Source of the DNA: Candidatus Krumholzibacteriota bacterium
GTDB lineage: Bacteria > Krumholzibacteriota > Krumholzibacteriia > JAJRXK01
Reading direction: 5' to 3'
Assembly: GCA_029262065.1 (NCBI GenBank)
Contig: JAJDAC010000057.1
Coordinates: forward strand, 2,094-66,093
DNA: 64,000 bases
Part shown: positions 10,383 to 49,044 of the stretch, one piece after another
Layout: every line of letters begins with the position of its first letter
Numbering within the stretch: the stretch's first letter is position 1
Made by a program: the position numbers and the translations under genes
The notes under the pieces: generated by a model
The model's database searches: none
Seen by the model: only the letters and a program-made list of their open reading frames with translations
What the model was told of the DNA's origin: nothing

Positions 10383-11109
10383 TCCCCGGGTCCTGGGCGA
10401 AATTCACGCGGAATTCGCGCCAGAGCGCGCCGAACGTGCCCTGTGGCAGTTCCTTGGTTTCAAACCCCTTGTCCGCCATGCACGCGGACAACTTCTCGCG
10501 CGCGCGTAGCAGCGCGACGTCGACGGTGTTTGCGGAGCAATTCACCTCGGGATGATCGGCGATGGAGCGGCTGTTCATGTCATAGAACAGGCGGAAAAAC
10601 AAAATGGTCCGACTCCGTCGCTTCAACCCACGAAAACACTCGATCAATCCGTCCACGAATTCGCTTCGTTCTACTGTCTGCTGGGGCGAGGGACTTGTAT
10701 CGGTCAGCACCATTGTCGGCACTTTCTTATCGGGGTCGTCGGACGACTCCGCGAATTCAACCAGATCCACGCGGCCCTGCCGCCGAAGCTCATCGACCAG
10801 ACCGTTGCGGGCAGTCGTCGACACGAACGCGGCAATCCGGCCGGGCGCGTCCAGAAAGGGGCGCCATTCTCCGGTATCGGCCCGGCGCATCAAATCTGAC
10901 GCCTTCTGTGAAACCAGGTCCGCGTGGGTATCGGGGTCGATGCTCCCCATACGACTCGCGTGCAGGTGGGCGTAGTGCGAAAGGGCGGTGTGCAACAGGC
11001 CCCAGATCTGCTCGAGCAGATGGTTGCGGTGCTTGCGCGGGGAGTTCGCTAGAGCTTGGCTGATGTCAGCCAGCCGCTGCGGCCACTTGAGTCTCGAATC
11101 GCTGTGCAT
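10366..11109 (-). CDS. ECF-type sigma-70 family sigma factor
   Basis: Region-2-like AFVSTTARNGLVDELRR; region-4-like LFFRLFYDMNSRSIA...VDVALLRAREKL. Start uncertain. Confidence 0.85.
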   Translation of the reverse strand: MHSDSRLKWPQRLADISQALANSPRKHRNHLLEQIWGLLHTALSHYAHLHASRMGSIDPDTHADLVSQKASDLMRRADTGEWRPFLDAPGRIAAFVSTTARNGLVDELRRQGRVDLVEFAESSDDPDKKVPTMVLTDTSPSPQQTVERSEFVDGLIECFRGLKRRSRTILFFRLFYDMNSRSIADHPEVNCSANTVDVALLRAREKLSACMADKGFETKELPQGTFGALWREFRVNFAQDPGSDHES

Positions 11110-11178
11110 CGATCAAATGGCTTTCGGACCAGGGGCTCGTCGAGTGTAGCGCCCGCGATAGTGCGGTACAATACGACC

Positions 11179-13599
11179 ATGATCGGGGGCCCTTTCAAAC
11201 TGCTGTTTCTACTGGCCGCGATCATGCTCGCGGCTCCGCCCGTTCTTGCCGAGACCCTGCCGCCACCGCTCCAAACCCTCGCGGCTGCGCGGGACGAATA
11301 CCTCGACGACTGGGTCTTCGTATCCGCGCTAATATCCGCCTCGGATCTGCTGGCTGCCTGCAACCGGCAGTTCGGCCCCGCGGACCCACGCACCGTGGAA
11401 GCGTACTTCCGGACCGGTATGGTCTTCCACCGAATCGGCCGGGCTCGCGTGGCCGAGCGGATCTACGACCGCGCACTGCGTTGGATGCGACAACGAGCTC
11501 AGCCCAACCACGAGTTGTGGCTGGAAATGCTCGAGCGGCGGATGGTGCTCACGAAGGAACTGCGAATGGGTCCGGAAATCATGGCTGACGCACAGCCGAT
11601 GTTGAATCGAGCCATGGAATTGTTGGACCAAGGAAGCCTGCGGCGGACGAGCATCCACGCCGATCTTCTGCAGAGTTGGGGCAACATCCTGCGGCGATCG
11701 CGTCGGGTCGATGAGGCTGCATTACGCTACGAGGAGGCGGCTGAGATCCGTCGGAACGTCTCGCCGAATGGAACCCTTGCGCTGGCCGACAACCTCATCT
11801 GGCTCGCTCATCTCTACTCGAGCCGGCCGGACAACGCCGAGCTGGTGGAGCAATGTCTGGATGAGGCGCAACGGATCCTGGTGGCGCTCAAACGCACCGA
11901 CCATCCGCTACAGGCGACCCTTCTGCACTACCGCCTGCGAAGGCTCATGTCCGTGGGTGACGATGCCGCGAGCCGGGAGCTGATTGACCGACTGCGGCCG
12001 TTCCAGCCCCGTACCGATCAGGCCCTGCCGCCCGGATTCGGGCACCGTTTGGTTCCGGTGCACCTGCAATCCGAAGCCGAACTCGACCTGGTCCAGGGTC
12101 ATTTCGACCGTGCCTTCGAATCGTTGGCGGCAGTCGCGGGGCTCATTGCGACCGAACGGACCTATACGGGGCGCCATGTGGCCAGCCTCGTTCAGCCGTC
12201 CGCATCGCGGGAACTGCTCGCGCTGGAACCCTTGCCTGGCCGCCACGAAGGCGTGGGTGTCGACGCACGTGAGGTTCGTCGAATCGAACTCGAAGCGGCG
12301 CTGACCGGTGTCGAGCATGAGGATGGCGTGCATCGCACGTCCGACGGTGACTCCCTGATGCTTCGGCTTCAAGGTTGTCTCGACGAACGTACGGCGATCG
12401 TTGGATGGGTCCGGACCAAACTGCGGGATCCGGCCACGTGGGGAGTTGTGGTTCGCAACCGGGGCTCCGCGCACTGGGTCAAGATTCAGCATCCGATTCC
12501 CAGGAGTGTCGTCGAATACCGCTCAGCGCTTGAACATGCCAGTCAATGGCCGACGCGAATCGACTCAGACCCGCAGCTGAACCAGCTCGAGGTAGCCATT
12601 GGCGAAAGTTACCTGCAACCGCTTCTGGACCGGTTGGAGGGAGTTGATCGTATCGTCTGGATGCCGTTTGGGGAAACGCTTCGGCTTCCCGTCGAGAGCC
12701 TCAGGCTTCCCGATGGGACGCCGTTGGGGCTTGCGTTCGAGAGTGTGTACGCGCCGTCGGCGGAGGTGTTCGTGGACCTGATGAGCCAGCCTTCACGATA
12801 CCCCAGATCCCTGTTGGTGGTGGCCGACCCCGTGTTCTCGCCCGTCGATCAAGCGGGTGCCCCAGAATTGCTCGTGGATGCAAACACCATCGTTGGACCG
12901 GACGTGCTCCGGAGCGTGCTCGATGGTGAAAGAGACTTTGCCAGCCTACCCAGGTTGGCGTCGACCTGGCTCGAGGCCGAAGCGGTTGCGGGTTTGTTCG
13001 ATGAATCAACCGTGTTGCGTCGCGCCCGGGCGACCGAGAGTACGCTCACCGACATGGGCCTGGGCAAGACGCTTCAGGCCTTCGATGTGATCCACATTGC
13101 TACGCATGCGCTCTTCAATCGGCTTGCGCCGTCGGCCTCGGCGTTGGCTTTGACAGCCGATCGGGTTGTCGGTCGCCAGGCAAAGTCGGCATTCGGGGAT
13201 GGACTGCTCAGCGCCCGCGAAATTGGACTTTCGTGGTCGCTGGATGCAGACCTGGTCACGCTCAGTGGTTGTCAGACTGGGTTTCAGTCCTCCTTGAGTC
13301 GCGAGGCGGGAATTGGCTTCCTTGCGCCGATTCTCGAGGCCGGTGCGCGCGCTTTGCTCATGAGTCGCTGGAAGGTGCACGACCACGCTACGTATCTGTT
13401 CATGAGGCGCTTCTACGAGAACCGAACCGGCCGCTATCGCGACGCGCGACAGGGCAGCGTCGGCGATCCCATGAGCAAGGCGGGTGCTCTACGTGAGGCG
13501 CGGTCGTGGCTTCGTGCGCTCGAAGCCGATGACGGCACTACGCCCTACTCGCACCCCGTCTACTGGGCCTCCTTCTTCCTGGTCGGTGACCCCCGCTGA
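11179..13599 (+). CDS. Exported TPR-CHAT (caspase-like, C14 clan CD) protease
   Basis: Signal peptide MIGGPFKLLFLLAAIMLAAPPVLA (start re-picked at ATG 11179); CHAT dyad IHIATHA and VTLSGCQTG; terminal HPVYWASFFLVG. Confidence 0.85.
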   Translation: MIGGPFKLLFLLAAIMLAAPPVLAETLPPPLQTLAAARDEYLDDWVFVSALISASDLLAACNRQFGPADPRTVEAYFRTGMVFHRIGRARVAERIYDRALRWMRQRAQPNHELWLEMLERRMVLTKELRMGPEIMADAQPMLNRAMELLDQGSLRRTSIHADLLQSWGNILRRSRRVDEAALRYEEAAEIRRNVSPNGTLALADNLIWLAHLYSSRPDNAELVEQCLDEAQRILVALKRTDHPLQATLLHYRLRRLMSVGDDAASRELIDRLRPFQPRTDQALPPGFGHRLVPVHLQSEAELDLVQGHFDRAFESLAAVAGLIATERTYTGRHVASLVQPSASRELLALEPLPGRHEGVGVDAREVRRIELEAALTGVEHEDGVHRTSDGDSLMLRLQGCLDERTAIVGWVRTKLRDPATWGVVVRNRGSAHWVKIQHPIPRSVVEYRSALEHASQWPTRIDSDPQLNQLEVAIGESYLQPLLDRLEGVDRIVWMPFGETLRLPVESLRLPDGTPLGLAFESVYAPSAEVFVDLMSQPSRYPRSLLVVADPVFSPVDQAGAPELLVDANTIVGPDVLRSVLDGERDFASLPRLASTWLEAEAVAGLFDESTVLRRARATESTLTDMGLGKTLQAFDVIHIATHALFNRLAPSASALALTADRVVGRQAKSAFGDGLLSAREIGLSWSLDADLVTLSGCQTGFQSSLSREAGIGFLAPILEAGARALLMSRWKVHDHATYLFMRRFYENRTGRYRDARQGSVGDPMSKAGALREARSWLRALEADDGTTPYSHPVYWASFFLVGDPR

Positions 13600-19249: not shown

Positions 19250-19440
19250 CTCGCCTACGCACGCGTGGGGCGACCATGAAATTGCCTGGCATGACCAGGC
19301 CCAGAGATTCCCCCGACACCCGGGGGAAAATGTCCGGCGCAGGCCGGACTTGCATAGGGCGCAGGGGCCCATCCGATCCTCGGAATGAACCTGAGCGCTT
19401 TGGATGAACCAGCGTGGCTGGTTCTTGGAGAACAAAAAAC

Positions 19441-19758
19441 GTGAAGAAGCTTTATGTGGGCAACCTGCCCTTCAGTGCCACCGATTCTGACGTAAACGAA
19501 TTGTTCAGCAAGCACGGCACCGTGAATTCGGTTGCGCTGATCAACGACCGTGAGACTGGTCGTCCCCGCGGATTTGGATTCGTGGAGATGGATGACGACG
19601 GCGCCCAGGCGGCAATTTCCGCTCTGAACGGTCACTCGATGGACGGACGTGACCTGAAGGTCAACGAAGCCCAGGACAAGCCTCGTCGCACCGGTGGTGG
19701 CGGCGGCGGCGGTGGCGGTGGATACGGCGGCGGCGGCGGCGGCGGCAACCGCTGGTAG
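19441..19758 (+). CDS. RRM RNA-binding protein with Gly-rich tail (Rbp family)
   Basis: KKLYVGNLPF (RNP2), RPRGFGFVEM (RNP1), GRDLKVNEA, poly-Gly tail; GTG start at 19441. Confidence 0.95.
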   Translation: MKKLYVGNLPFSATDSDVNELFSKHGTVNSVALINDRETGRPRGFGFVEMDDDGAQAAISALNGHSMDGRDLKVNEAQDKPRRTGGGGGGGGGGYGGGGGGGNRW

Positions 19759-25121: not shown

Positions 25122-28004
25122 CTACGGCGCGCCACTGATGGAGAATGCGGCCCAGTAGTAGGGGTGTTCCCACCCAGGAGTGGCTTTGACTCGCCGTTTC
25201 GCTTCCTGTAGGGCCCGGGCGATTTCGAAGTCGTCGGGTTGACCGACGGGTACATTCCGCAGGAACCCGGCCACCAGTTCGGTCGTGGCGCGATCGTCAA
25301 TGGCCCAACGCGTAGCAACCACCCGTTGCGCTCCCGCCGCCAGAAACCCGCGCCCGAGCGCCTGGGCTCCTTCGCCCAGGATAACCGCGCCGCGCTGGGT
25401 ATCACACGCCGACAGGACGGCCAGCCTACAGTTCAGGTTCAGCTCTCCCAGCTCGAACAGGTGAAGGGCGCCGTCGTTTCGCGCGTCGACAATGTTGGCC
25501 GGCGGACTCAGGGCCAACGCGGCGCGTAGGCCGTTTCGATTGCCGCGTACCACAGCGTGGGTTGCGAAGTGAACAATGCTGGCCTGACTCAACTCCGCGC
25601 GAACCCGCGCTTCGGTTGCGTCGGAACCCAACAACGTCGTGGTTTCTTCGGCGGCAAAAATTGCACGAACCGAATCCACCTCGGCCGCGGACCAAGGCAG
25701 CGCGCCCAGCGTGTCGAATACCATGGTCGAGCGTTTCGTGCCGGTGCCAGACGTAGGGTTTCCCACGCTGAGTATTCGTGCGTGTTCGCCAACCCGGTGG
25801 GGAGTTCGCGTCTGCAAGGCTCTCATGCTGGCTATGGAATCGATCACGTGCACGGCCGGTCCGCGGTTGATCCACATCTGGCCCTGATCGTCGAGGCTCA
25901 GCGCTTCGAAGGGCAGCGAGTGCAGGGACGCATCGGGAGAGATGATCACGGCCGGCACCCGGGAAATCTCATTCCAGATGGTCGCAGGCACCAGAATCCC
26001 GAACAGTGCTTGAGCGCGTTGTTCTCTTTGTTGTGTATCCCTGCGTCGGCGCAGGGCCGACGGTTCGCTCCACATGGCGAGCAAGCCGCGGGCGTTGTCG
26101 CGAGTCAGGGCGTTCGAACCCTCCCGCCGGGGGCCCGTGTCGATGCCGACGTCACCCAGGGCGCGTGTGCAGTCGTCCAACCCAAACGGACCGGGAGAGA
26201 TTCCCAGGCGCGACGCGTGGGTCTCTGTGGCCACCAATTCGAAGACCTGGATGTTCTTCTCGTCCGATGGCTTGAAGAACAGGTAGCTGTGCTCGCGTCC
26301 CACGAAATAGTTCATCAGAGGCGCGGACAACCCGTTTGCGTCATCTGAATCGAAACCCGTCGATCCTTGCGCCAAGATCGACATCCAGGCGGGTTGGTCG
26401 CGAAGCCTGGCTTCCATCGTGGCGTGAACGCTGGCCGTGAGACTGTCGATGGAGGTTTCGACCGCGGCCAGTTGTTCGCGTGTCGATGGGTCCCCCTCCA
26501 AGATCGACCAGCGTAGGGACACCGAGCGACGCGTGAGTTCAGCCAAACGCAAGCGCAGGGATTCCAGCTCGGTTGCGGTCTCGTCAGAGCTCGGGCCCCC
26601 CGCCTCGTTGCCCAGGCCAAGGGCAATGTGTTCTCGCAGGACGCGGCCTTTGGCCTGTTCCACCAGGGCAAAGGCCGCATCGATGTCACCCGACGAAACA
26701 TGTAGGTCTATGAGTCGCGCGTACGGACGCCGGAACATCGCCAGCAGTCGTGCTCGGCTGGTGGAAGAGCCGCCGATGGTCGTGCGGCCGCGTTCGATGA
26801 TCTCGATGGCGCGTTCCAGGTGTTCACGCGCGGCCGCGGTGTTCTCTTTGGACACTTCGTGTGCGGCCGCGAGGTCCAGCCCACGTACGCGGGCCATTGG
26901 TGCCACGCCCGACTCCGCGAGAATCCCAATGGCGCGCTCCAACTCGCTAGCCTGAGGTTCCGTCAGAGTTCCTTTGGCGTCGGTTGCGATTGCATCGATT
27001 TGGACAATGATGGCCAGAGCTAACTCGGGGTGTTCGATGCCATACACATCTTGTCGCAGCCGTCTTGCCAACTGCGCTTTCTGTGCCGCGGCATCGGCGT
27101 TTCCCGCCGCCAGAAGGTCTTCGGCTCCGTCCAGGAGGACCTGTGCGAGCAGCACGGGACGGGGCGGCCGGAGAGTGCGGACGACCTGCTCTGCTTCCTG
27201 GCGCAGGGACCACGCTTGTTGTGCATTGCCGCTTTCGGCGTGCAACTCGGCCAGTTGATTCAGCGGAAATACAATCCATGGCGAGTCGGCGGCGTAGGCC
27301 AGCCGTGAGAGTTCCAACGCCCGTTCGTAGAGCGGTCGCGCTTCATCGAAGCGAAGTTGCATGCGAAGGATCTCAGCCAGGTTCAGGTTCGCGTTGGCGG
27401 TTCGCGCATTCGTGCACTCGCGCTCGATGCTGATCGCGAGTGCCTTGCGAAGCAAGGGTTCGGCTTCGTCGTAGTTCTGTAGATCGCGGTGAAGGCCGGC
27501 GTAGTTGTTCAACAGCACCGCCTCGTCGCATCCGGGATCCTGCACGTTCGGCTGGCGATTCAATGCGTCTTCGAATGCCTTCCGGGCGGCATTGAGATCG
27601 CCCGCGGCACGGGAGCATTCGGCCAGGTTATTCAGCCGGAGCACCCAAAGAGAGTCGGGGGCGTCGACGCTGGCGAGGATTTCCACGCTACGCTGGAACT
27701 GAGCTCGAGCAAGAGCCGGTCGGTCGAGCTGGTAGTAGAGGTTGCCCAGAAGATCGTGAACCGCCTCGATCGTCAGGTCGTTGTTCGTGTCGATCGCCAC
27801 CAGCGACTCGGCGTGAGCCACGGCCAATTGCGTGTCGCCGGCGACCAGGGCATCGGCCAGACGCTGCTCCATCGTGGATTCTTGGTCTGCGTTGGTCAGA
27901 GCGGCCAACAATGAAACAAGCACCAAGGCCAACAGGCCCACCAGACTGGAGTGGCCGGCCGTTGTCGCTCGGTGTTGGTGTGACTGCGCACTCTGTGACG
28001 GCAT
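25122..28004 (-). CDS. Exported TPR-CHAT protease
   Basis: Start re-picked at ATG 28004; hydrophobic signal SLVGLLALVLVSLLAALTNA; TPR-10/12-like repeats (LNNLAE, LNNYAG, LNQLAE); dyad VHFATHA and AVLSACDT; terminal HPYYWAAFSISG. Confidence 0.88.
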   Translation of the reverse strand: MPSQSAQSHQHRATTAGHSSLVGLLALVLVSLLAALTNADQESTMEQRLADALVAGDTQLAVAHAESLVAIDTNNDLTIEAVHDLLGNLYYQLDRPALARAQFQRSVEILASVDAPDSLWVLRLNNLAECSRAAGDLNAARKAFEDALNRQPNVQDPGCDEAVLLNNYAGLHRDLQNYDEAEPLLRKALAISIERECTNARTANANLNLAEILRMQLRFDEARPLYERALELSRLAYAADSPWIVFPLNQLAELHAESGNAQQAWSLRQEAEQVVRTLRPPRPVLLAQVLLDGAEDLLAAGNADAAAQKAQLARRLRQDVYGIEHPELALAIIVQIDAIATDAKGTLTEPQASELERAIGILAESGVAPMARVRGLDLAAAHEVSKENTAAAREHLERAIEIIERGRTTIGGSSTSRARLLAMFRRPYARLIDLHVSSGDIDAAFALVEQAKGRVLREHIALGLGNEAGGPSSDETATELESLRLRLAELTRRSVSLRWSILEGDPSTREQLAAVETSIDSLTASVHATMEARLRDQPAWMSILAQGSTGFDSDDANGLSAPLMNYFVGREHSYLFFKPSDEKNIQVFELVATETHASRLGISPGPFGLDDCTRALGDVGIDTGPRREGSNALTRDNARGLLAMWSEPSALRRRRDTQQREQRAQALFGILVPATIWNEISRVPAVIISPDASLHSLPFEALSLDDQGQMWINRGPAVHVIDSIASMRALQTRTPHRVGEHARILSVGNPTSGTGTKRSTMVFDTLGALPWSAAEVDSVRAIFAAEETTTLLGSDATEARVRAELSQASIVHFATHAVVRGNRNGLRAALALSPPANIVDARNDGALHLFELGELNLNCRLAVLSACDTQRGAVILGEGAQALGRGFLAAGAQRVVATRWAIDDRATTELVAGFLRNVPVGQPDDFEIARALQEAKRRVKATPGWEHPYYWAAFSISGAP

Positions 28005-28223
28005 GCGCCTGCTGTCTGGATGAGAGGAACAGGAAAGTCCAAGCCTAGCGCACTTTCCGGCAAACGCCCCACGACTTCGCACGACTATATCACTAGCCCG
28101 GTGTTCCATAGGTGCCTCGCCTGGGCCCCCGATTGCCGCCTGGGTGCAAAGTCGTTTACGATCAATAGGTCGCCCAGACCCTGCGCGGCCCAACCAGCCA
28201 TTTCTGTCCCGGAGTTCTATGCG

Positions 28224-29270
28224 ATGTTTTGTTTCCCTAGCACCCGCATCCCAGCATCGCCGGCCCGCTTCGTAGTTCGGGTCGTGGGCCTCTGGCTGAT
28301 TCTGTTTGCTACCCAGGTATCCGTGGTTCGTCCGGTCGAGGCGATTCGCCTGATCTCCACGTCCATCGACCGTCAGTTCCCCGACGGATGGTGCCCGATC
28401 GAGAGTCGAGACGGACAACAAACCGAAACGCTGTGGGCTACCTTCACGGCGCAGAGTTCTTCGGTGCGCATGGTCGTCAGCGTGGACAATTTTTCTCCCG
28501 GCGCCTTTGGCGAGTGGATGAACAATCGGATCGACAACATCGCCGTGCTCGAGCGATCGGTCTACGCCGCCAACCGCGGCCCGGTTCCCAACTACGGAGA
28601 CTGCTACTTCGACGATCCCGATGCACCCGCGTTGTTGTACGACCCGGCGAGCCCGTTGACCACCGTCTACCTGGAGTTCTTCGACACCGATCCATCCGGT
28701 GATCCGGCGCGCGCCTGGTCCACGGGGACCTGGGATCCAAGCACCGGGTTCTCGGGCACGGCACCCCGCAACACCGTGAATGGTACGGATACCACGGGCG
28801 GGTCGTTGGTGTTGGGTGAGGAGAACGACGGCGTGGTGACTCTGGTTACCGAGCGTGAGGTCACGAACCTGTCGGTCGGCGTGGAGTACGTGGTCGTAGG
28901 GTGGTGGAGCGCCAACGTTGAAGGCGGACAACTCACGATCGAAGTGTTCGACGACAATGCGGTTGCGGCTCCTTCATTGCCGGGAGCCGGTCGGGCGATT
29001 CGTTCGATCTACCCAAACCCCGCGAACCCGCGCGTCCATGTGCAGCTGCGTCTGGAACGTTGGGAGTCGCCGCCGTCGCTGACGATTCTCGATGCGCTCG
29101 GGCGGCGAGTACGTACCTACGACTTGTCGGCCATGACGCCGGGTGATCAGGTTGTGACCTGGGACGGCCGGGACAACACGGGGCTTCCCGTGGCATCGGG
29201 TGTTTACTTTGCGCGACTGGAAGTGGCCGGGCACACCATCGACCGTGCGAAGATGGTGCTGGCAAAGTAG
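28224..29270 (+). CDS. Secreted protein with small beta-domains and FlgD-Ig/T9SS-like CTD
   Basis: GGAG RBS, ATG 28224; signal ending PVEA; C-terminal IYPNPANPRVHVQL...WDGRDNTGLPVASGVY. Confidence 0.8.
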   Translation: MFCFPSTRIPASPARFVVRVVGLWLILFATQVSVVRPVEAIRLISTSIDRQFPDGWCPIESRDGQQTETLWATFTAQSSSVRMVVSVDNFSPGAFGEWMNNRIDNIAVLERSVYAANRGPVPNYGDCYFDDPDAPALLYDPASPLTTVYLEFFDTDPSGDPARAWSTGTWDPSTGFSGTAPRNTVNGTDTTGGSLVLGEENDGVVTLVTEREVTNLSVGVEYVVVGWWSANVEGGQLTIEVFDDNAVAAPSLPGAGRAIRSIYPNPANPRVHVQLRLERWESPPSLTILDALGRRVRTYDLSAMTPGDQVVTWDGRDNTGLPVASGVYFARLEVAGHTIDRAKMVLAK

Positions 29271-30265: not shown

Positions 30266-30405
30266 GATGGCCACGTAACGGCCGTTTGATCGACTGTGCC
30301 AGGTACAGTTGAGGGCGAATCCCATTGTTTTGGTGCCGGCGGGTGGCCGGATCTACCCCCGAACCGCGCGACAGTAGATAAGAACCCATGTATGGAGGCC
30401 TTATC

Positions 30406-33400
30406 ATGTCCCGCGCCGCAACTCTTGCTTTGCTCTTGCTCCTATTGCCATCGGTCGCCAAGGCGGCTCCACCCGATCTCATTTCCGATTCGTTCCTGCA
30501 GGGCGTCAGCGGCGAGTCTTTTGGCCACGCCATGGCCACGGCGGGCGACGTCAACGGAGACGGCTACTCGGACGTACTCGTTGGGGCGCCTACGGCGGGC
30601 AGCCTGAATTGGGGAACCGTGTACCTGTTCTACGGGAACGGCGACGGAATCGATGAAACTGCCGCATGGAGCTTCAACGGTGGCGTCGTCGCGCAGTGCG
30701 GTTTCTCGGTGGCCCCGGCCGGAGATACGAACGGAGACGGATTTGGTGACTTTCTCGTGGGTGCTCCCTACGGCGGCCTTGGCGAGGGAGGCGAAGGTCT
30801 TGTCTACCTGTTCGCGGGAAGCGCATCCGGGCCGTCGCTTCTGAACACGTTCCAGGTCAACGACAACGGCGCCCACTTCGGCTATTCGGTCTCCTGGGCC
30901 GGGGACGTGAATGGCGATGGATACGACGACATCATGGCCGGGGCTCCTGACTGGGGCGGTTTCGGCAGCCCGTTCTACATTCCCGTGCAGGGTTTGGCTC
31001 GCGTGTACCACGGGGGTCCGAATGGTCCCGACGATACGGCCGATTGGTCTTTGTCGGGTGGCCAGACGGCTTCGTCGTTTGGGTTCAGCGTGGCTGGCCT
31101 TGGCGACGTAAACGGCGACGGGTACGCGGACGTCATGGTCGGCGCACCGCATTGGGATCCTGGAATCATCGATACCAACAACGGCAAGGTCTACTGCTAC
31201 CTGGGTAGTGCGACCGGCTTGGCTACGTCGCCGACCTGGGAGGCAGTGGGTGCGGGAGGCGGTGACCTGTTCGGGTCCTGGGTGGCCGGCGGAGCCGACA
31301 TCAACGGAGACGGCTACAACGACGCATTGATTGGCGCGCCCGACTACACCACCATCGGCGGTGCGTTCTACTGGACATTGGGTTCGGCCGGAGGACTCCT
31401 GTCGACGAATCGGGTATCGCCGGCTCAGATCGACTTCGGGCAGAACCTTTCCATGATGGGCGACTTCAACGGCGACGGCTTTGCCGATGTCATCGTGGGA
31501 GGTGATGCGAACTACGCCAACATCTACGAAGGCAGCCCCAATGGCCTGTTGTTTTCGGCCAGCGCCGGTGGCCAGATCGCCAGCTACGGTGAAGTGGTGG
31601 CCTGCGCGGGTGATGTCGACGGCGATGGCACCAGCGACTTCCTGATCAATCATCCCGATGCTCCGGGCGGTGGCATTGTTCGCCTGTACCTGGGCGGTCG
31701 TCAGGTGCCGGGCTCGGTTGTACCCGAACAGGAAGTGATGGGAAGCGCACCCGGGGAATCTTTCGGCGCGGCGGTGGCGTCAGCCGGCGATGTGAATGGA
31801 GACGGCCTGGACGATTTCATTGCCGGGTCACCTACCGTAGGTGGATCGGACGAGGGACGCGTCTCGGTGTACCACGGAACCGTCGCGGGCCTCTTCTTTC
31901 CGGACTGGGTATCCAACGGAACCACGCCAGGCGGAAGCTTGGGCGAAGCGGTAGCTTCGGCCGGCGACGTCGACGGCGACGGCTACGCCGACATCGTCGT
32001 GGGCGAGCCGGGCGCGGACAAGATCCACGTATACATGGGATCGGCGTCAGGACTATCGGCTAGCCCCGACTGGACCTTCCAGGACGACGAGGCGGGTTCT
32101 CGCCTGGGAGCTTCAGTGGATGGTGCCGGCGACATCAACGGCGACGGCTACGCCGACATCGTGGCGGGGGCGCCGCTGTACGACGGAGACTACGTCGAGC
32201 AGGGACGGGTGCGTGTGTTCATGGGTTCGGCCCAAGGCATGACCAACAGCGGCTTTAGAATCTACAATTTTCAGTCGGGTGGCTATTTCGGCGCGTCCGT
32301 GGCGGGAATCGGCGACGGCGACGGCGATGGATTCGATGACGTTGCGATCGGTACGCCGGGCTACACTCTGACCGAGGTCGACCAGGGATCGGCGTTCGTT
32401 TTCTTCGGCGCGTCAAACACCATGACCGGTCCCTGGGCAAGCACCGGCGGTGCGGCCGCCGGCGATGCCAATGGATCTTCCATCGCTGCCGCGGGCGATG
32501 TGAACGGGGATGGCTTTGCCGACTTTGTAGTTGGCGCGCCTCTCGCCGATCAGGGCGGTACCGCCGACGTTGGTACGGCCCGTATCTATTTCGGTTCGGA
32601 CGTCGGGGTGCCCTTCCTCACCAGTCGTACGATTCCCGCTCCTGCGATCTGGCCCAATCGTCAATGGGGGCGATCGGTTTCTTCGGCCGGCGACCTTGCT
32701 TCGTTGGGAAAGACCATGGTCGCCATTGGCAACGTGAACAATCTGGGAGGGGCGCAACTGGGCCTCGTGGAAGTCACCAGCAGTTCCTACGCGCATATTG
32801 GCTATCTGAATTCGGGTGCGAACGGTACCAACCTGGCGGTAGCCGTGGCTGGCGACCTGGACGGCGATGGATTGCCGGAAATCGCCATGGGCACGCCGTT
32901 GGGAAACGGTACGAACGGGGGATTCGCAATCTTCTCGCCGCACATGGACCTGGGGCCGAACATTCGCAGCATCAAGCCCAGGCTCACGGACATGGGTGGC
33001 GATCCCGTTGCATTGCGCGGCCTTACCCAGCCCAACGGTTTGAGAATAGAGATGAAGGGCTGGCTGCCTACCGGTCGAACCCGCTTGAGGCTGGAATCGC
33101 AGATGGCTCAACATCTGGATCCGTACGGAAGCGTGGAGGCGGGATCGTGGGTCAACAGCGGCTCCCCGGTGAATCAGGGCGTCGCCTTGTCCGAGAACGT
33201 GCCTACTAGTCTGATCGATGGGCAACGGTATCGTTGGCGCCTGCGGGTGGCCTCACAGAATCCGTTCGTTCCGCACGGACGATGGATCACTGACACTCCC
33301 AACTCAGACTCCCTGTACGGCTTCCGTGTCGACGTCGTAACGGCCATCGCCGAAGTGCCATCGTCGTTCCGGGCGCAGTCACGAATGCTTGCGCCGTACC

Positions 33401-33651
33401 CCAATCCGTTCAATCCCACTACCAATCTGCAATTCGAATTGGAGGTACCGCACGGAGTTTCGCTGCGCATCGTCAACCTGGCGGGGCGTGTGGTACGAAC
33501 TCTTCACCGCGGCCCGCTGGAGGCCGGGGAGCACCGTATGCAGTGGGACGGGCAAGACGACGCCGGGCGGTCCGTTGCGTCCGGTAGCTACATTGCCGTG
33601 TTGGAGGTGGGTCAGGACCGCGAGACGAGGAAACTAGTGCTTGTGAAATAG
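30406..33651 (+). CDS. FG-GAP (integrin-alpha-like) repeat protein, 14 repeats, with FlgD-Ig/T9SS-like CTD
   Basis: GGAGG RBS, ATG 30406; signal peptide; 14 AGDVNGDGxxDxxVGAP-type repeats; C-terminal APYPNPFNPTT...WDGQDDAGRSVASGSY. Confidence 0.92.
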   Translation: MSRAATLALLLLLLPSVAKAAPPDLISDSFLQGVSGESFGHAMATAGDVNGDGYSDVLVGAPTAGSLNWGTVYLFYGNGDGIDETAAWSFNGGVVAQCGFSVAPAGDTNGDGFGDFLVGAPYGGLGEGGEGLVYLFAGSASGPSLLNTFQVNDNGAHFGYSVSWAGDVNGDGYDDIMAGAPDWGGFGSPFYIPVQGLARVYHGGPNGPDDTADWSLSGGQTASSFGFSVAGLGDVNGDGYADVMVGAPHWDPGIIDTNNGKVYCYLGSATGLATSPTWEAVGAGGGDLFGSWVAGGADINGDGYNDALIGAPDYTTIGGAFYWTLGSAGGLLSTNRVSPAQIDFGQNLSMMGDFNGDGFADVIVGGDANYANIYEGSPNGLLFSASAGGQIASYGEVVACAGDVDGDGTSDFLINHPDAPGGGIVRLYLGGRQVPGSVVPEQEVMGSAPGESFGAAVASAGDVNGDGLDDFIAGSPTVGGSDEGRVSVYHGTVAGLFFPDWVSNGTTPGGSLGEAVASAGDVDGDGYADIVVGEPGADKIHVYMGSASGLSASPDWTFQDDEAGSRLGASVDGAGDINGDGYADIVAGAPLYDGDYVEQGRVRVFMGSAQGMTNSGFRIYNFQSGGYFGASVAGIGDGDGDGFDDVAIGTPGYTLTEVDQGSAFVFFGASNTMTGPWASTGGAAAGDANGSSIAAAGDVNGDGFADFVVGAPLADQGGTADVGTARIYFGSDVGVPFLTSRTIPAPAIWPNRQWGRSVSSAGDLASLGKTMVAIGNVNNLGGAQLGLVEVTSSSYAHIGYLNSGANGTNLAVAVAGDLDGDGLPEIAMGTPLGNGTNGGFAIFSPHMDLGPNIRSIKPRLTDMGGDPVALRGLTQPNGLRIEMKGWLPTGRTRLRLESQMAQHLDPYGSVEAGSWVNSGSPVNQGVALSENVPTSLIDGQRYRWRLRVASQNPFVPHGRWITDTPNSDSLYGFRVDVVTAIAEVPSSFRAQSRMLAPYPNPFNPTTNLQFELEVPHGVSLRIVNLAGRVVRTLHRGPLEAGEHRMQWDGQDDAGRSVASGSYIAVLEVGQDRETRKLVLVK

Positions 33652-33730: not shown

Positions 33731-34339
33731 ATGTTCAAGCACCTCGGACTACTCATCCTTGCCATTCTTCTCGTTTCCGCCGCTTCTGACGCCCAGGCGG
33801 GAGCGCTGGAAATCCAGGGTTACGCCGGTCTATACAGTCCCGCTGCCCTCGCCGTGGAAGAGATGGTCCCTGGCGCGGGTACGGTTACCGCCGAGCACGC
33901 CGACGCACTGGCCCTCGGCGGCCGTCTGGACATCTGGCTCAAGAACCAGCTCGCCCTGGAGTTGGGCGGCATGTACACCTCCACCTCGCTCGACGGCCAG
34001 GTGCTGGGAATCACCGGATCCACCGGCGCGCGAGCTGTCTTTGGTAGCGCGAAGCTGCTGTTGCAGGGCGCGTCCGATCCCAACCAAACGCGATTCCACA
34101 TCGGCGCCGGCATCATGCTGGGCTCAATGAGCTACGACGATATCGACGGATCCAACTGGGTCGCGCTTACCGTGGGTGGTGGCGTGCGCGTGCCCTTGAG
34201 TGAGTTCGTTGCCCTACGCCTCGACGTGGACGACTACATCTACACCCTGCAGTGGTTCGTGGACGGCGTGAGCGTGACCGACGAACTACTCCAGCACGAT
34301 CTGGTGTTCTCGTTGGGCCTCTCGCGCTATCTGCCCTAG
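33731..34339 (+). CDS. Outer-membrane beta-barrel protein (8-stranded, OmpA-TM-like)
   Basis: Signal peptide ending AQA; alternating amphipathic strands (LALGGRLDIW, FHIGAGIML, VGGGVRVPL, LVFSLGLSRY). Confidence 0.75.
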   Translation: MFKHLGLLILAILLVSAASDAQAGALEIQGYAGLYSPAALAVEEMVPGAGTVTAEHADALALGGRLDIWLKNQLALELGGMYTSTSLDGQVLGITGSTGARAVFGSAKLLLQGASDPNQTRFHIGAGIMLGSMSYDDIDGSNWVALTVGGGVRVPLSEFVALRLDVDDYIYTLQWFVDGVSVTDELLQHDLVFSLGLSRYLP

Positions 34340-34366: not shown

Positions 34367-35080
34367 CTAGAAGCGCGACTTCAGCGCGCCCCACGTAACC
34401 GACTCGCTGGCCAACACCGCCGAGCACGTCATGACCTCGGCGCCGGCGACGATCACGCAACCCCTGGGATCGTCGCAGTCCACGTATCCGGTGAGGATCA
34501 CTTCGGTGCCGGTATCGATGAACTCTTCCAAACTGGGCGACCGCACGGTGAGCAGTGGCTTCCAACACGAATCGGGACACGGCACGAACAAGGCGTCGGG
34601 CCCCAGGGAAAAGACCTGACCGATTCCCACGATTGCTTCAGCGCTCGGTTGCGCGTACGACACGCTACGGCCTAGTTCGAACGCACCGGCGAGTAGAAGC
34701 AGGCGACGGTCATCCACCGCGAACACTTCGTAGCGATGAATCGTATTGGGATCGATGGTGTCGTTGGCCTGGAACTCGTAGGTGCCGGCCGTGGGTAAGG
34801 CCAGGAGCTCCTCGGTGATGCGCGCTCGGTTGCACTCCCCTACCACGGTTCGGTAGATATCCAGACCCACGAGGTTGGGATTGAGATCGGACGCGAACGC
34901 CACGCTGAGCGATAGAGTTACGCCACCGCTGGGTTCGACGCTCGCCTCCAGGTCGAGACTGCTGCTGGTTGGCGGCTCGGAAGCATCGACAGACTGGCTC
35001 CACGTGATAGCCGTGGCCATGAGTAGCATCGATGACAGCACGAATACACGGATGTTCGTGGGCATCTGGGACCTCTTCAC
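34367..35080 (-). CDS. Secreted hypothetical protein ending in a TWGALKSRF tail
   Basis: Signal peptide ending VDA; several Cys; C-terminus AVLASESVTWGALKSRF*. Confidence 0.75.
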   Translation of the reverse strand: MKRSQMPTNIRVFVLSSMLLMATAITWSQSVDASEPPTSSSLDLEASVEPSGGVTLSLSVAFASDLNPNLVGLDIYRTVVGECNRARITEELLALPTAGTYEFQANDTIDPNTIHRYEVFAVDDRRLLLLAGAFELGRSVSYAQPSAEAIVGIGQVFSLGPDALFVPCPDSCWKPLLTVRSPSLEEFIDTGTEVILTGYVDCDDPRGCVIVAGAEVMTCSAVLASESVTWGALKSRF

Positions 35081-35247
35081 TTTGAAGTTTTCGAAACAGC
35101 TCTCAGGGGCGCGGAGGGAGCCGTCTATTCAAGAGGTGACGTGAGCCACCGAATCCGTGCACAAAAAGTGGGACTCTGCGATGATGGAAAGGTCACAGAA
35201 CACGCCACACACGTCGCGACGGCTGAGCGTCGGCACGGGTCGGTTAC

Positions 35248-35484
35248 ATGGGCGAGAGCCAGACCAACAACCCATTGCACGGAGTCACCCTGGAGCAGGT
35301 CGTGACCTACCTGGTCGAACGCTTCGGCTGGGTCGAACTCGGGCAACGAATCGACATCCGATGCTTCACGAGCGATCCTTCGGTCAAGTCCAGTCTCAAG
35401 TTCCTGCGCCGAACACCGTGGGCCAGGCAGAAGGTCGAGGATCTGTACATCCACACGAAGCGTGGTGACGTCTGGCGCTCGTAG
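35248..35484 (+). CDS. VF530/DUF2132 family DNA-binding protein
   Basis: [10 protein letters not shown]...[35 protein letters not shown] is the family signature. Confidence 0.92.
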
Positions 35485-35528
35485 CAGTAGGCTCGAAAGA
35501 GTTTCACAACGAACAAAGGGGTCCCAAG

Positions 35529-36197
35529 ATGTTTCGACGCATCCTTACTACGATGACAGTACTCATGGTGGCTTGCTCGATCGCTTTGCCCGTGCAAGCC
35601 GTCGTGACTTCGCTCCCGTTGCTTCAGGCCGGGGACGACGAACGAGAGGACGCTCTGGGCTGTTACGAGCCAGACTTTCTGGCGGGTACCTCTTCGACCG
35701 AAGTCAATTTGAAGGCGGGCGGCAACGCGTGGGGTTGTTCGTCGGAGTGGGCCATGAGTGTGGAGTTCGACCTGAGCGACATTCCCGTGGGGTTGGCGGT
35801 GTTCAACGCGACCTTCACCGTGCGGAAGACAGGATATGCCGACGACTCCATCGGCTTCTTTCCGCTGGGCCTGTTCGCCTATTCCGCCACCGGCGGAGTC
35901 GTCGGGGTGCCCCGGGCAAACCTGACTCTCGAGACCTTGCTGGATGCCGTATCGCCCTCGTCGCCCAATGTGGACCACTCGTTTGACGTGACCGAATTCA
36001 TACGTGATGCGGTGGACGACGGCGAGACCCGCGTGGGGCTGTTGCTGGCCAGCGTCTACAACGAAGCCGGCTACCACGACTTCATCTACCTGGGAGGCGC
36101 GGGCCACAGCTCACCGCCGCGCCTGGTCGTGGAGCACGAGGGGCCCGTTTCGACCGAGAGCAGCAGTTGGTCCGCGGTGAAGGCGCTCTTCCACTGA
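35529..36197 (+). CDS. Secreted DNRLRE/CBM96-like beta-sandwich protein ending in a SWSAVKALFH tail
   Basis: Signal peptide ending VQA; FDLSDIP...A...FDVTEFI...PRLVVE pattern; C-terminus GPVSTESSSWSAVKALFH*. Confidence 0.75.
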   Translation: MFRRILTTMTVLMVACSIALPVQAVVTSLPLLQAGDDEREDALGCYEPDFLAGTSSTEVNLKAGGNAWGCSSEWAMSVEFDLSDIPVGLAVFNATFTVRKTGYADDSIGFFPLGLFAYSATGGVVGVPRANLTLETLLDAVSPSSPNVDHSFDVTEFIRDAVDDGETRVGLLLASVYNEAGYHDFIYLGGAGHSSPPRLVVEHEGPVSTESSSWSAVKALFH

Positions 36198-45906: not shown

Positions 45907-48900
45907 GTGACCATGATGTCAGTGTCATACCGTCGACTCCTCATTGTCGCGGGCATCGCGGCGATCGCGGCGTTTTCTTCGGCCCAAGCCCATGACGACG
46001 AGAGTCACACCGCGACGTTGGAAGAGGTGGAGCGCCTCGTCCGGCAGGATCCCCGCGGTGCCGAGCACCTGGCCGAAGGCTTGTTGCGTGCGGCCACCGA
46101 GACCCATGGCGCCGAGTCGATGGACGTAGCGCGTGTATACGACCTCATTCTCGAGTGCCGATTCCGGTCGCGGTCCAAACCTCCCGAAGAATCGATCGAG
46201 CTTGCCAACGACGTGGTCGCGCTGAAGCAACGCGTGGGCCCGGCCGAGGACCCCACGCTCAGTGCAACCCTTTACGCGCGCGCGATTCTGCATGAACAAT
46301 CGGGAAACATCGCTGCGGCCGAGGCCGATTTCCTGGCGGCGTTGTCGAATCGGAAGACGACGCTGGGAGAAGATCATCCCGAGGTGGCCCGGTCCCACCG
46401 TGGGTTGGCGATCTTCTACAGGAATCAGGGAAAACCCGGCAAATCCAGGGAGCAGCGCGAAAGCGCGTTGCGCGTGGCGGTGGCGGCATTCGGCGAGGAC
46501 CATGTAGGAACAAGTTCGTACCGCGCGGAGCTGGCGTCTTCCCTGATTCGACTCGGCGAATCGCCGGCCGCCCGCGATCAATTGAGGCGGGCGTTGAACG
46601 CGATCGAAGCCAGTGACCAACCGGCCGGTCCGGACCTGGTGCAGTGTCTCAATCTCCTGGTGGAGATCGAGCGTTCGGAAACAAATTTCGATGCGGCGCG
46701 TGAATTGTCGGTAGAGGCTGTCGAAGCCGCCCGTGAGGTTCATGGCCCGGTTTCCAGCGGCTACGCCTGGGTTCTGAATAGCTACGGACTTCTGCTGGCG
46801 CAGATCGGCGACTATCGCGGTGCGCAAGACGCATTGAGCGAAGTATTGGAGGTACGGCGGCAGGTGCAGGGGCCAACCCATCCCGCCGTGGGGCTCGTGC
46901 TGTCAGACCTGGGCAAAGTCACGGCGCGGCAGGGTGACAACGATCGGGCCATCGAGTTGTACGACGAAGCCATCGGAATCATCTCGGCCGTGGCGGGAGA
47001 GGAGCACCCCGACGTAGCTCAGATCCGAGTCATGCTGGCCGAGGTCCATCTGGCGCGGGGCGAATCGGCCCAGACGATTGATCTGCTCAACAGATCTCGA
47101 CCTGCGTTGGCGGAACTGGATCCCGCCGGGGTCGACGTTGCCTACTGCGATCTGTTCCTGGCGCAGGCGCTGGCTCTGGAAAACAGGGTTGAGGAAGCAC
47201 GAAGCGCCTACCAAAGCTCAGAGGACCTTCTCGAACGTCGTTTTGGCCGGCGCTCTCACCATCGCATGGCGTCGGCCCTGAAGTTTGCCGAAGCCGAACG
47301 GGCTTGGGGAAACCCGCAGCGTGCGTTCGAGCTGGCGCTCGAAGTCGAAGAGATCATGGAAGAGAACCTGCGCCTGAACGTTCGCACCATGGCCGAGCGC
47401 CAGGCCTTGCGGTACGTCGCGGTGCGTCCACAGTCTCTGGACGTGCTTCTCTCGCTGGCGGCCTCCGAAACGTTGGGGCAAGAACAGCTGAATGCCACCT
47501 TGAACGCGGTCGTACGTTCCCGGGCGCTCGTGCTGGACGAGTTGGGTCGCCGCAACCGCGGAACACTCGAGAGCTCGGATCCCGAAGTAGTGCAACTGGC
47601 CGACCAACTCAGCCAGGCCCGACAGAGATTGGCCGAGTTGTTCGTAGCGGGGCGGCGGGGCGAGGACGATGTCGAATTTGAGCGGGAGCTGAGTGCGGCG
47701 GCCGCGGCCAAGGAATTGGCCGAGAACGCGCTGGCCCGACACAGCTCGGCGTTCCAGGTCGAGTTCGAACAAACCGCCCGCGGCGGGCGGGACGTGATCG
47801 ACGCACTTCCTCCGTCGAGTGCGCTGGTATCGTTTGTAAGATTCAGCGACTCCGCAACCAAAATTGAAGCGTACGGCGCGTTTGTCACGAATGCGGGCAA
47901 CGGCGATTCCAAATTCGTTGCCCTGGGCAACGCCGAACAGATCGATGGGCTCGTACGAAATTGGAAGGAGAGCGTCACGCGCGGCGGTACCGTCAGCGGT
48001 CCGTTCGGGACCAACGAAGAAGAACGGTACATGCAGGGCGCTGAGACGCTGGCGGCCGCGGTTTGGAATCCCGTGGCCGAACACCTGAATGGTACGCGGC
48101 AGGTGTTCGTTGTCCCCGACGGGTCGCTTCAGGTGCTGAACCTGGCTACGTTGCCGGCTTCGCCCAGCCAGTACCTGGTGGAAACCGATTTGCGGATTCA
48201 CTACCTGTCGGCCGAGCGGGATCTGGTACCAACTCGCGAACGATCGAGCGCCCGCAACATGCTGGCGTTGGGCAATGTAGACTTCGAAAACCTCAACGAA
48301 GCCGAGGCTGGTGTACAGATAGCGTTTCGGGGATCGCGAAGTGCTTGCGAATCTCTCGACCAGATGGAATTTGATCCACTGCCTGCGACCAGCGTCGAAG
48401 TTGAAGCCTTGACGAAGATGCTGGCCAGCCAGGACTTTCGTGTCACCAATCTCCTGGGGCCCAATGCTACCGAACCGGACTTCAAGCGGGAAGTAGCTGG
48501 CGCCTCGGTGGTTCATCTGGCCACCCACGGCTTCTTTCTTTCCGAGACCTGCAACGACGAACTGCCGATGGTCACGTCCGAGAACGACATTCCCGAAAAT
48601 ACGGCTCTCGAGAATCCTCTACTTCTATCTGGATTGGTTCTGGCGGGAGCCAACACCCGCGGTGAGTCGAATGGGCTCGACGATGGCATACTTACGGCCG
48701 AAGAGATTGCCGCCCTGGACCTGTCCGCCAGCGAATGGGTTGTACTGTCGGCCTGTGACACCGGACTTGGCATCATCCGGGGTGGCCAGGGTGTATTCGG
48801 ATTGCGGCGCGCATTCGCGCTGGCCGGTGCGCGAACGCTGATCATGAGCTTGTGGGCGGTGGAGGATCAGGCGACGCGTGAGTACATGCAGGGCCTGTAT

Positions 48901-49044
48901 GATGCGCGTTTTCTCCAAAACATGACCACGGCCGAGAGCGTACGAGCTGCGAGTCTCAGCGTTCTCGAACGTCGACGGTCGGCGGGCGACAGCACGCACC
49001 CGTTCTTCTGGGGCGCGTTCGTGGCTACCGGCGACTGGAACTGA
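45907..49044 (+). CDS. Exported TPR-CHAT protease (no sigma or anti-sigma adjacent)
   Basis: Signal peptide ending AQA; TPR-10/12 repeats (GEDHPEVA, GPTHPAVG, GEEHPDVA); dyad VHLATHGFF and VVLSACDTG; terminal HPFFWGAFVATG. Confidence 0.92.
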   Translation: MTMMSVSYRRLLIVAGIAAIAAFSSAQAHDDESHTATLEEVERLVRQDPRGAEHLAEGLLRAATETHGAESMDVARVYDLILECRFRSRSKPPEESIELANDVVALKQRVGPAEDPTLSATLYARAILHEQSGNIAAAEADFLAALSNRKTTLGEDHPEVARSHRGLAIFYRNQGKPGKSREQRESALRVAVAAFGEDHVGTSSYRAELASSLIRLGESPAARDQLRRALNAIEASDQPAGPDLVQCLNLLVEIERSETNFDAARELSVEAVEAAREVHGPVSSGYAWVLNSYGLLLAQIGDYRGAQDALSEVLEVRRQVQGPTHPAVGLVLSDLGKVTARQGDNDRAIELYDEAIGIISAVAGEEHPDVAQIRVMLAEVHLARGESAQTIDLLNRSRPALAELDPAGVDVAYCDLFLAQALALENRVEEARSAYQSSEDLLERRFGRRSHHRMASALKFAEAERAWGNPQRAFELALEVEEIMEENLRLNVRTMAERQALRYVAVRPQSLDVLLSLAASETLGQEQLNATLNAVVRSRALVLDELGRRNRGTLESSDPEVVQLADQLSQARQRLAELFVAGRRGEDDVEFERELSAAAAAKELAENALARHSSAFQVEFEQTARGGRDVIDALPPSSALVSFVRFSDSATKIEAYGAFVTNAGNGDSKFVALGNAEQIDGLVRNWKESVTRGGTVSGPFGTNEEERYMQGAETLAAAVWNPVAEHLNGTRQVFVVPDGSLQVLNLATLPASPSQYLVETDLRIHYLSAERDLVPTRERSSARNMLALGNVDFENLNEAEAGVQIAFRGSRSACESLDQMEFDPLPATSVEVEALTKMLASQDFRVTNLLGPNATEPDFKREVAGASVVHLATHGFFLSETCNDELPMVTSENDIPENTALENPLLLSGLVLAGANTRGESNGLDDGILTAEEIAALDLSASEWVVLSACDTGLGIIRGGQGVFGLRRAFALAGARTLIMSLWAVEDQATREYMQGLYDARFLQNMTTAESVRAASLSVLERRRSAGDSTHPFFWGAFVATGDWN

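Follow-up and report, generated by a model that had tools for sequence, protein, structure and literature searches.

A short, portable C-terminal tail on exported proteins of Krumholzibacteriota and other uncultured phyla, a candidate envelope sorting signal

A window of 64,000 nucleotides from the genome of a Candidatus Krumholzibacteriota bacterium (contig C57:2094-66093) was analyzed in this study, in which two divergently oriented neighbouring genes, ORF1 and ORF2 (open reading frames 1 and 2), encode exported proteins ending in the same short tail. ORF1 (34367-35080, minus strand) encodes an orphan secreted protein of 237 amino acids (aa), or 232 aa if it is started at the ATG at 35065, and its C-terminus reads ...AVLASESVTWGALKSRF-stop. 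The tail of this protein consists of the linker A-V-L-A-S-E-S-V-T (34394-34420, minus strand), which holds the V-x-[ST]-E part and ends with T as the helix N-cap, and of the predicted helix W-G-A-L-K-S-R-F (34370-34393, minus strand), with the stop codon directly after it (34367-34369). ORF2 (35529-36197, plus strand) encodes a secreted stand-alone beta-jelly-roll protein of 222 aa, which resembles carbohydrate-binding modules (CBM) of the DNRLRE type and reads ...GPVSTESSSWSAVKALFH-stop at its C-terminus. Its tail is composed of the linker P-V-S-T-E-S-S-S (36144-36167, plus strand), with the last S as the helix N-cap, and the predicted helix W-S-A-V-K-A-L-F (36168-36191, plus strand), followed by H and the stop codon (36192-36197). 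Both endings follow the pattern [PA]-V-x-T-E-x-x-S-[W/F]-G-x-[VIL]-K-[AGS]-[RL]-[FY]-stop. The initial annotation, which was made from the sequence of the window, had given the same two C-terminal sequences and their positions, and only the start of the ORF2 tail has to be moved, from 36140 to 36141.

The N-termini of both proteins are Sec-signal-like, with a basic n-region and a hydrophobic core. The signal-peptide-like N-terminus of ORF1, MKRSQMPTNIRVFVLSSMLLMATAITWSQSVDA (34982-35080, minus strand), was recognized by a heuristic for these two elements, and its cleavage site is approximate. The signal peptide of ORF2, MFRRILTTMTVLMVACSIALPVQA (35529-35600, plus strand), was found by the signal heuristic as well, coincides with a helix at residues 2-17 in the AlphaFold2 (AF2) model, and also holds a weak lipobox-like MVAC. 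The cores of the two proteins are unrelated and fall into separate blastp clusters, in agreement with the earlier description of two unrelated signal-peptide proteins. No Pfam or NCBIfam match was obtained for ORF1, and no homologue except itself was found among 5.8 billion (5.8e9) proteins searched; a single paralogue, likewise tailed, is present in the same genome. ORF2 matches the NCBIfam model DNRLRE_dom below its cut-off (E = 1.3e-6) and no Pfam family. The closest named homologues of ORF2 come from metagenome-assembled genomes (MAGs) labelled Krumholzibacteria, and the tail is kept in all 24 of its 24 orthologues. When compared to a profile of the tail, ORF1 scores 28.4 bits (E = 1.8e-5 per genome; C57:36463-36543 of the genome, G000) and ORF2 40.7 bits, and the tail regions of both have no Pfam or NCBIfam match at E <= 0.1. 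The canonical tail is thus present even on the homologue-less orphan ORF1.

The whole genome, with 5.77 Mb, 62% GC and 59 contigs, was then searched for the motif. Gene calling by a crude codon-usage method yielded 4302 genes covering 92% of the genome. In the six-frame translation, the pattern W[GSA].[LVIM]K..[FYW] has 77 matches, 69 of them at most 8 residues upstream of a stop codon, while a reversed decoy motif of matched composition has 8 matches and none adjoining a stop. The match of the motif with C-termini is far above chance. An iterated local hidden Markov model (HMM) run over the called genes found a total of 110 C-terminal tails, corresponding to 2.6% of the genes, plus one other match in an internal position. 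After removal of the signal peptide and the tail, the 110 cores form 70 blastp clusters, the largest with 20 members and 53 of them singletons.

The sequence logo of 70 W-type tails reads [PA]-V-[AP]-T-[ET]-x-x-S-W-G-x-[VIL]-K-[AGS]-[RL]-[FY], with an information content of 2.9 bits for V, 2.6 for T, 3.5 for S and 3.9 for K. The shared W of the initial annotation is found in the majority of the tails and gives way to F, L, M or V in roughly a third of them (e.g. SFGAVKGRF and SMGAVRARF). The residue preceding W is S, T or N, the classic helix N-cap residues, in 68 of the 70 tails, and small residues occupy helix positions 2 and 6. The stop codon directly follows the aromatic residue in 40 of the 70 W-type tails (57%). 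The remaining ones have 1 to 9 extra residues of varied chemistry. Endings of the tail include F, FE, FQ, YR, FGED and FGGKSP, and in one case the extension reaches 15 residues. Synonymous codons vary freely at the conserved positions, where the Ser codons belong to the AGY as well as the TCN family and every Gly and Val codon is in use, which denotes selection on the peptide and not on a DNA or RNA element; a DNA-level repeat, a terminator and a recombination site were ruled out on the same ground. A tail protein of 558 aa (C42:87632-89308) has two additional internal tail-like copies (..VSWSKLKTLY.. and ..SSWGSLKLAY..) at the ends of its modules. The protein resembles three tailed modules fused into one, an example of the motif surviving internally. 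A paralogue of this protein, 210 aa in size, is encoded next to it.

The tail is borne by exported proteins. With the same heuristic applied to all genes, a signal peptide was called for 87% of the tail proteins of the regular-expression set and for 34% of the genes overall (Fisher p = 4e-20). In the majority of the tail proteins that the heuristic missed, a signal peptide is visible by eye, and only 2 to 6 are lipoprotein-like. Rarity of the motif, placement away from C-termini and lack of signal peptides, which the initial annotation had named as grounds against a sorting signal, were all looked for, and the counts above speak for the opposite on each of the three. Among the 70 cluster representatives only a minority match a known family, and the matches are almost all to binding or adhesion modules, including LTD, Laminin_G_3, CHRD, CARDB, malectin, Calx-beta, PA14, CBM96, dockerin, fibro-slime and DNRLRE. 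The 'choice-of-anchor F' domain, ScyE/ScyF-like NHL proteins and relatives of PEP-CTERM proteins are also among the matches. Cysteines are present in most of the cargo.

The same gene neighbourhood contains a protein with an alternative C-terminal tag. A plus-strand gene at 30388-33651 encodes an FG-GAP repeat protein of 1087 aa with a C-terminal domain (CTD) of the type IX secretion system (T9SS), type A, with an immunoglobulin-like (Ig-like) FlgD fold, at about 33397-33648. This CTD matches Pfam FlgD_ig at E = 5e-11 and scores 28.8 bits with TIGR04183, above the cut-off of 23 bits. Between this gene and ORF1, and adjoining the latter, lies a plus-strand gene for an outer-membrane beta-barrel protein of 202 aa (33731-34339), with OMP_b-brl and OMP_myx_plus matches both below cut-off and with the C-terminus ..SLGLSRYLP, which is not the tail. 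The description of the surroundings in the initial annotation, with other cargo bearing the Ig-like CTD, is accurate. An additional ORF of 78 aa without a signal peptide is located between the two tail genes (35248-35484, plus strand).

The initial annotation had also placed the tail where other cargo carry the CTD, and this is borne out genome-wide. An HMM trained on this genome identified 284 CTD proteins (about 6.6% of genes), 274 of them with the domain at the very end. No protein among the 110 tail and 284 CTD proteins has both tags. The median length is 236 aa for the tail proteins versus 783 aa for the CTD proteins. For 26 of the 110 tail proteins there is a paralogue with a homologous core followed by a CTD, and the homology runs up to the tag. 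In the pair g3902/g0580 the tag is exchanged over the full-length protein, giving 218 aa with the tail versus 305 aa with the CTD, and in g0636/g0635 and g2111/g2112 the tailed and CTD forms are adjacent genes. CTD genes make up 13.5% of the neighbours within two genes of tail genes, which is the same as around CTD genes themselves; near random genes or random signal-peptide genes their share is 5.8-7.7%, and none of 2000 permutations reached 13.5%. For 37% of the tail genes, another tail gene is found within two genes. CTD proteins are also the commonest neighbours across at least 120 tail loci in foreign genomes. A common 'PVxTE' linker before CTD and tail alike was considered and is not supported generally: the 20 residues before the CTD are rich in P, T and A with less than about 1 bit per position, far from the values of V and T in the tail logo, and linkers are homologous between tail and CTD forms only in paralogue pairs. 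As an observation in its own right, 284 CTD proteins represent a very heavy T9SS cargo load.

Predicted structures were obtained for two unrelated families of tail proteins from two phyla. The AF2 model of ORF2, built with its 24 orthologues, has a mean pLDDT (predicted local distance difference test) of 88.5. In this model, residues 24-204 form a beta-sandwich and residues 205-213 a coil, and the helix that follows (214-221) coincides exactly with W-S-A-V-K-A-L-F. The pLDDT of the tail is about 61-74. Foldseek searches with the core retrieved the CBMs 8WAB (E = 1e-8), which binds chondroitin sulfate, and 7VBO, which binds alginate. The second family, from loci labelled Eisenbacteria and with a YR-type tail, has a modelled core that ends at residue 212, followed by a coil and then the helix W-G-R-I-K-S-L-Y (223-230), and its pLDDT is below 50 over residues 218-231. 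Thus, both models predict a beta-sandwich, a coil and then a helix beginning exactly at W. One face of such a helix bears W, V/I and F/Y. The amphipathic helix of about 17 aa that had been proposed initially is therefore to be revised: the shared tail stands, and the predicted helix spans about 8 residues, from W to the final aromatic residue, after an extended conserved linker. The low pLDDT of the tail in both models implies that it is not packed on the core. The predictions fit a short peptide that would fold on a partner and would not be part of the cargo fold.

The distribution of the tail extends well beyond this genome. The tail profile has matches in 21 of 21 relatives and in 148 of 151 sampled genomes of the phylum of the window. 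Tails of the form ...SWGAIKSLYR, preceded by another linker, are present in the three genomes that seemed negative, which brings the count to 151 of 151. In a second, small phylum, to which a MAG labelled 'Gemmatimonadota' belongs, all nine of nine genomes possess 10 to 63 tails. In a third phylum, that of a MAG labelled Eisenbacteria, 75 of 81 genomes have matches at E <= 0.001 and the counts are bimodal, with either 10-69 or 0-3 tails. All but one of the 21 tail-poor genomes in the third phylum match at E <= 0.3, and the matches are genuine tails in most of the genomes in which they were read (1-4 per genome, up to 19), while two had no readable tail. Overall, tails are present in at least 79 of the 81 genomes. 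The tail protein of the tail-poor genomes is usually one conserved Lamin-tail-domain protein (..NGC.T.V...TWGAIKRLYR), which may represent an ancestral or core cargo. In 11 of 14 loci of this protein (L245:7700-8386, on contig C35 of genome G249, and 13 among L215-L242), its gene lies directly downstream of an ABC-transporter permease gene. A histidine kinase follows downstream in five loci, and then a response regulator in one annotated locus. The permease upstream of the sole tail protein in tail-poor genomes was considered as a reader of the tail and is not plausible in this role.

A DNA-pattern scan for [ST]-W-G-x-[IV]-K-x-x-Y-R-stop over 185,579 species genomes gave at least 120 loci. Among the 131 matches listed, nearly all are the ends of ORFs of 190-500 aa, and the record labels are Eisenbacteria (most), Krumholzibacteriia, Latescibacterota and Zixiibacteriota, with a few Fibrobacter(aceae) and Gemmatimonadota. 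Several of the MAGs originate from wastewater plants and groundwater. The MAGs labelled Fibrobacter sp., Fibrobacteraceae and Candidatus Latescibacteria (L054, L064, L077 and L092) turned out to be identical with genomes placed in the GTDB class of the window, the contig coordinates of the matches being the same. Organism names of public records were accordingly rejected as a guide to distribution; they are unreliable, and several labels are wrong at the phylum level. A search of 1.84 billion representative proteins with a stop-less tail profile returned 55 matches at E <= 0.001, and 45 of the 51 non-repetitive ones end at most 4 residues from the C-terminus. The consensus of the other lineages ends in Y-R, and in most lineages the aromatic residue is not terminal.

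All carrier lineages are T9SS-positive and rich in PorV-like barrels. SprA (TIGR04189) was detected above the curated cut-off in 20 of 20 tail-bearing genomes drawn from all three phyla, this genome among them, and in 38 of 41 genomes of the third phylum, which makes 58 of the 61 tested; 19 of the 21 tail-poor genomes in the third phylum also possess it. In this genome SprA is a 2354-aa frame on contig C32, and PorU (C14:85599-89735) scores 489.7 bits versus a cut-off of 420 bits, with a PorV-family barrel adjoining. The canonical T9SS operon (C14:85599-94434) encodes the PorU sortase (1378 aa, with a FlgD_ig CTD of its own), PorV and a third protein related to the 'T9SS-dependent M6-like inactivated metalloprotease'. 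Barrels of the PorV/PorQ family are encoded in this genome at C14:89809-90801, C46:171568-172617, C12:62988-63986, C47:6777-7760 and C2:243557-244615, and at least four barrels of the family score above cut-off. The co-occurrence with the T9SS fits a T9SS-linked reader of the tail, and shared ancestry would explain it equally well. Trios of a large outer-membrane protein (OMP), a PorV-like barrel and a CTD protein were considered as half-size SprA cassettes. This was ruled out for two of the three, whose OMPs are TonB-dependent-receptor-like with plug and CarboxypepD_reg domains; the OMP of the third gave only an HHH motif match. At C12:62988-67058 and C47:3691-7760, barrels of the PorV/PorQ family that pass the NCBIfam cut-off form pairs with OMPs that are TonB-dependent-receptor-like and carry CarboxypepD_reg and plug domains. 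Such pairing is unusual, and a CTD protein adjoins the C12 pair.

The tail is a genuine, highly non-random and portable C-terminal tag on exported proteins. We consider it probable that it serves as a recognition tag for the sorting or docking of proteins in the envelope, in parallel to the T9SS CTD; from the data above we infer that a protein reads it, that sorting or docking is the outcome, and what kind of machine may do the reading. The tag would be laid out as an extended linker [PA]-V-[AP]-T-[ET]-x-x followed by an S/T-capped amphipathic helix of 8 residues, [W/F/L/M]-G-x-[V/I/L]-K-[A/G/S]-[R/L]-[F/Y], with the helix ending the protein or one to few residues after it. The cargo, mostly small, non-catalytic, lectin- or CBM-like beta-sandwich modules, would be exported through Sec and fold in the periplasm, with the tail remaining unpacked on the folded core. 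The tail would then be bound by a dedicated receptor in the envelope, which would direct or hold the cargo at the outer membrane or the cell surface, on a route running parallel to that of the CTD of about 85 residues on larger cargo of the same genomes. As to the receptor, a reader linked to the T9SS, such as one of the several PorV/PorQ-family barrels, leads the more specific hypotheses and is put forward tentatively. With slightly lower confidence still, the tail might be a second T9SS-related entry signal for export or display in candidate phyla of the Fibrobacteres-Chlorobi-Bacteroidetes (FCB) group, with a PorV/PorQ-family barrel or an unknown adaptor as the reader. If so, small folded lectin- or CBM-like modules would be brought to the cell surface together with the large enzymes that bear the CTD and are encoded beside them, and 16 residues would do the work of an Ig-like domain of about 85 residues.

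Several points weigh against a sorting or docking signal. No non-cargo family recurs beside the tail genes, either in this genome or in the at least 120 foreign loci. The recurring neighbours in this genome are only abundant Ser/Thr-kinase and TPR families, enriched about twofold and with 74-85 copies per genome, and those in the foreign loci are only CTD proteins, kinases and regulators. Presence/absence profiling yields no reader and there is no tail-free lineage within the three phyla, where even the tail-poor genomes mostly keep tails and a clean negative set is thus lacking. The co-occurrence with the T9SS could simply be inherited from a common FCB-group ancestor. All carriers are uncultured MAGs, and gene calls and signal peptides rest on the heuristics of this study. 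Moreover, the AF2 tail helix is of low confidence.

Four other explanations were weighed. A receptor-free role, in which the basic-aromatic helix binds lipopolysaccharide (LPS) or outer-membrane lipid as a weak non-covalent anchor or for vesicle loading, is improbable, though less so than the other three. The tail is C-terminal and flexible, its helix is amphipathic, with one face formed by W, V and F and with K and R in addition, and T9SS cargo are known to be LPS-anchored in Bacteroidota. However, a helix of 8 residues in which three side chains are hydrophobic holds to a membrane very weakly. Helices that bind lipid also tolerate wide sequence variation, whereas the G at helix position 2, the S/T cap, the K and the upstream V and T are kept across three phyla, a pattern suggestive of a stereospecific partner. 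Recognition by a periplasmic PDZ protease of the Prc/CtpA or DegP/DegQ/DegS type, with the tail serving in degradation (as a degron), in processing or in stress signalling, has only a small chance of being correct. PDZ proteases are universal, a short motif with a hydrophobic end on exported proteins would suit them, and the conserved V-x-T-E linker could hold a cleavage site. PDZ domains, however, recognize about 4-7 residues of a ligand, beginning with its free carboxylate, whereas 16 are conserved here, the residues after the aromatic vary as listed above, and the fused protein has internal copies. Moreover, a degron is hard to square with the proportion of genes that carry the tail, with their being mostly small binding modules beside T9SS cargo, and with the exchange of the tail for a secretion domain.

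The aromatic F, Y or W at the end of the tail, which is the last residue in the majority of W-type tails, also recalls the beta-signal of OMPs. In this explanation the tail would be an amphipathic C-terminal strand bound by BamD/BamA of the beta-barrel assembly machinery (BAM) or by another Omp85-type protein, and that machinery would deliver the cargo to or through the outer membrane. It is also favoured by a strand-like pattern, in which V (position -5) and a small residue (-3) alternate with K (-4) and R (-2). Yet genuine OMPs of this genome end otherwise (..RVGVGWVF, ..LRVGLGYAF and ..FRVQMDYTF) and are missed by the tail HMM. A, G or S stands at position -3 in place of a large hydrophobic residue, and G at position -7; the aromatic is not terminal in the Y-R endings of other lineages, and the tail tolerates extensions of up to 9 residues (15 in one case). 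In addition, the AF2 prediction for the tail is helical, and soluble beta-sandwiches make up the cargo cores. We therefore regard the beta-signal explanation as very unlikely. The least likely is that the tail is an element of the cargo itself, such as an oligomerization or self-capping helix or a pro-peptide. The copies at internal module ends of the 558-aa protein speak for it, since a free C-terminus is not always required. Against it, the tail is found on 70 unrelated clusters with the orphan included, it is detached from the core in both AF2 models (at low confidence), and paralogous cores carry the CTD in its place. The putative sorting or docking signal is thus retained as the preferred reading.

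Compared to known systems, the tail is nearest to the T9SS CTDs (type A, TIGR04183/PF18962, here in the FlgD_ig-like form PF13860; type B, CHU_C). Both are strictly C-terminal, reside on Sec-exported cargo of many unrelated families, share genomes and neighbourhoods, and are interchangeable on paralogous cores; the carriers of the tail belong to SprA-encoding lineages, and this genome has SprA, PorU and a PorV-family barrel. They differ in that the tail has 16 residues versus about 70-100, is predicted as a linker with a short helix versus a seven-stranded Ig-like sandwich, matches no CTD model and is borne by much shorter cargo. The tripartite signals (LPXTG/sortase, PEP-CTERM/exosortase, GlyGly-CTERM/rhombosortase, MYXO-CTERM and PGF-CTERM/archaeosortase) are likewise short portable C-terminal tags on unrelated exported proteins, and in other phyla the choice-of-anchor F and ScyE/ScyF-like NHL domains carry such signals. 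The tail, unlike these, has neither a transmembrane helix nor a terminal basic cluster and mostly 0-1 residues after the helix, and no hydrophobic stretch was found in the 0-9 residues after its aromatic. No cognate sorting enzyme turned up, with no search aimed at exosortase, rhombosortase or sortase genes, a question that is moot for a tail without a transmembrane segment. By analogy only, the same logic may be seen in encapsulin cargo-loading peptides, encapsulation peptides of bacterial microcompartments and the peroxisomal targeting signal PTS1 read by Pex5, where, as would hold for the tail, a flexible linker joins a folded cargo to a short amphipathic peptide at the terminus, which is disordered by itself and is read by the surface of a receptor. 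Those cargo are cytoplasmic or peroxisomal without a signal peptide, whereas the tail cargo are exported, and there is no sequence relationship. With the OMP beta-signal read by BamA/BamD, the tail shares a C-terminal aromatic with a preceding basic residue, and differs in that the true OMP ends are distinct here, the aromatic is not terminal in most lineages and the tail cargo are soluble.

C-terminal cargo tags have repeatedly led to whole sorting machineries, including those of sortases, exosortases, rhombosortase and the T9SS. The tail marks 2-3% of the genes in some genomes, is kept across at least three uncultured phyla and, where cores are homologous, takes the place of a T9SS domain, yet it is covered by no model in Pfam or NCBIfam and no description was found in the searchable literature, motif strings included. 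Annotation pipelines label almost all tail proteins as 'hypothetical', without localization. If it is a true sorting or docking signal, the tail would define, for these phyla, a surface or secreted proteome made up largely of small polysaccharide-binding modules beside large secreted enzymes, would point to an unknown envelope reader, and would provide a 16-residue portable tag for protein display.

Other features of the window were noted as well. Three large proteins, encoded at 11056-13599 (plus strand), 25122-28931 (minus strand) and 45907-49044 (plus strand), have a common C-terminal motif, ..HP(V/Y/F)(Y/F)W(A/G)(A/S)F..G. A protein resembling these three is encoded elsewhere in the genome and may be TPR/CHAT-like. 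An ORF of 114 aa at 19414-19758 (plus strand) ends with a long glycine run (..GGGGGGGYGGGGGGGNRW) and may be a low-complexity protein or a spurious call.

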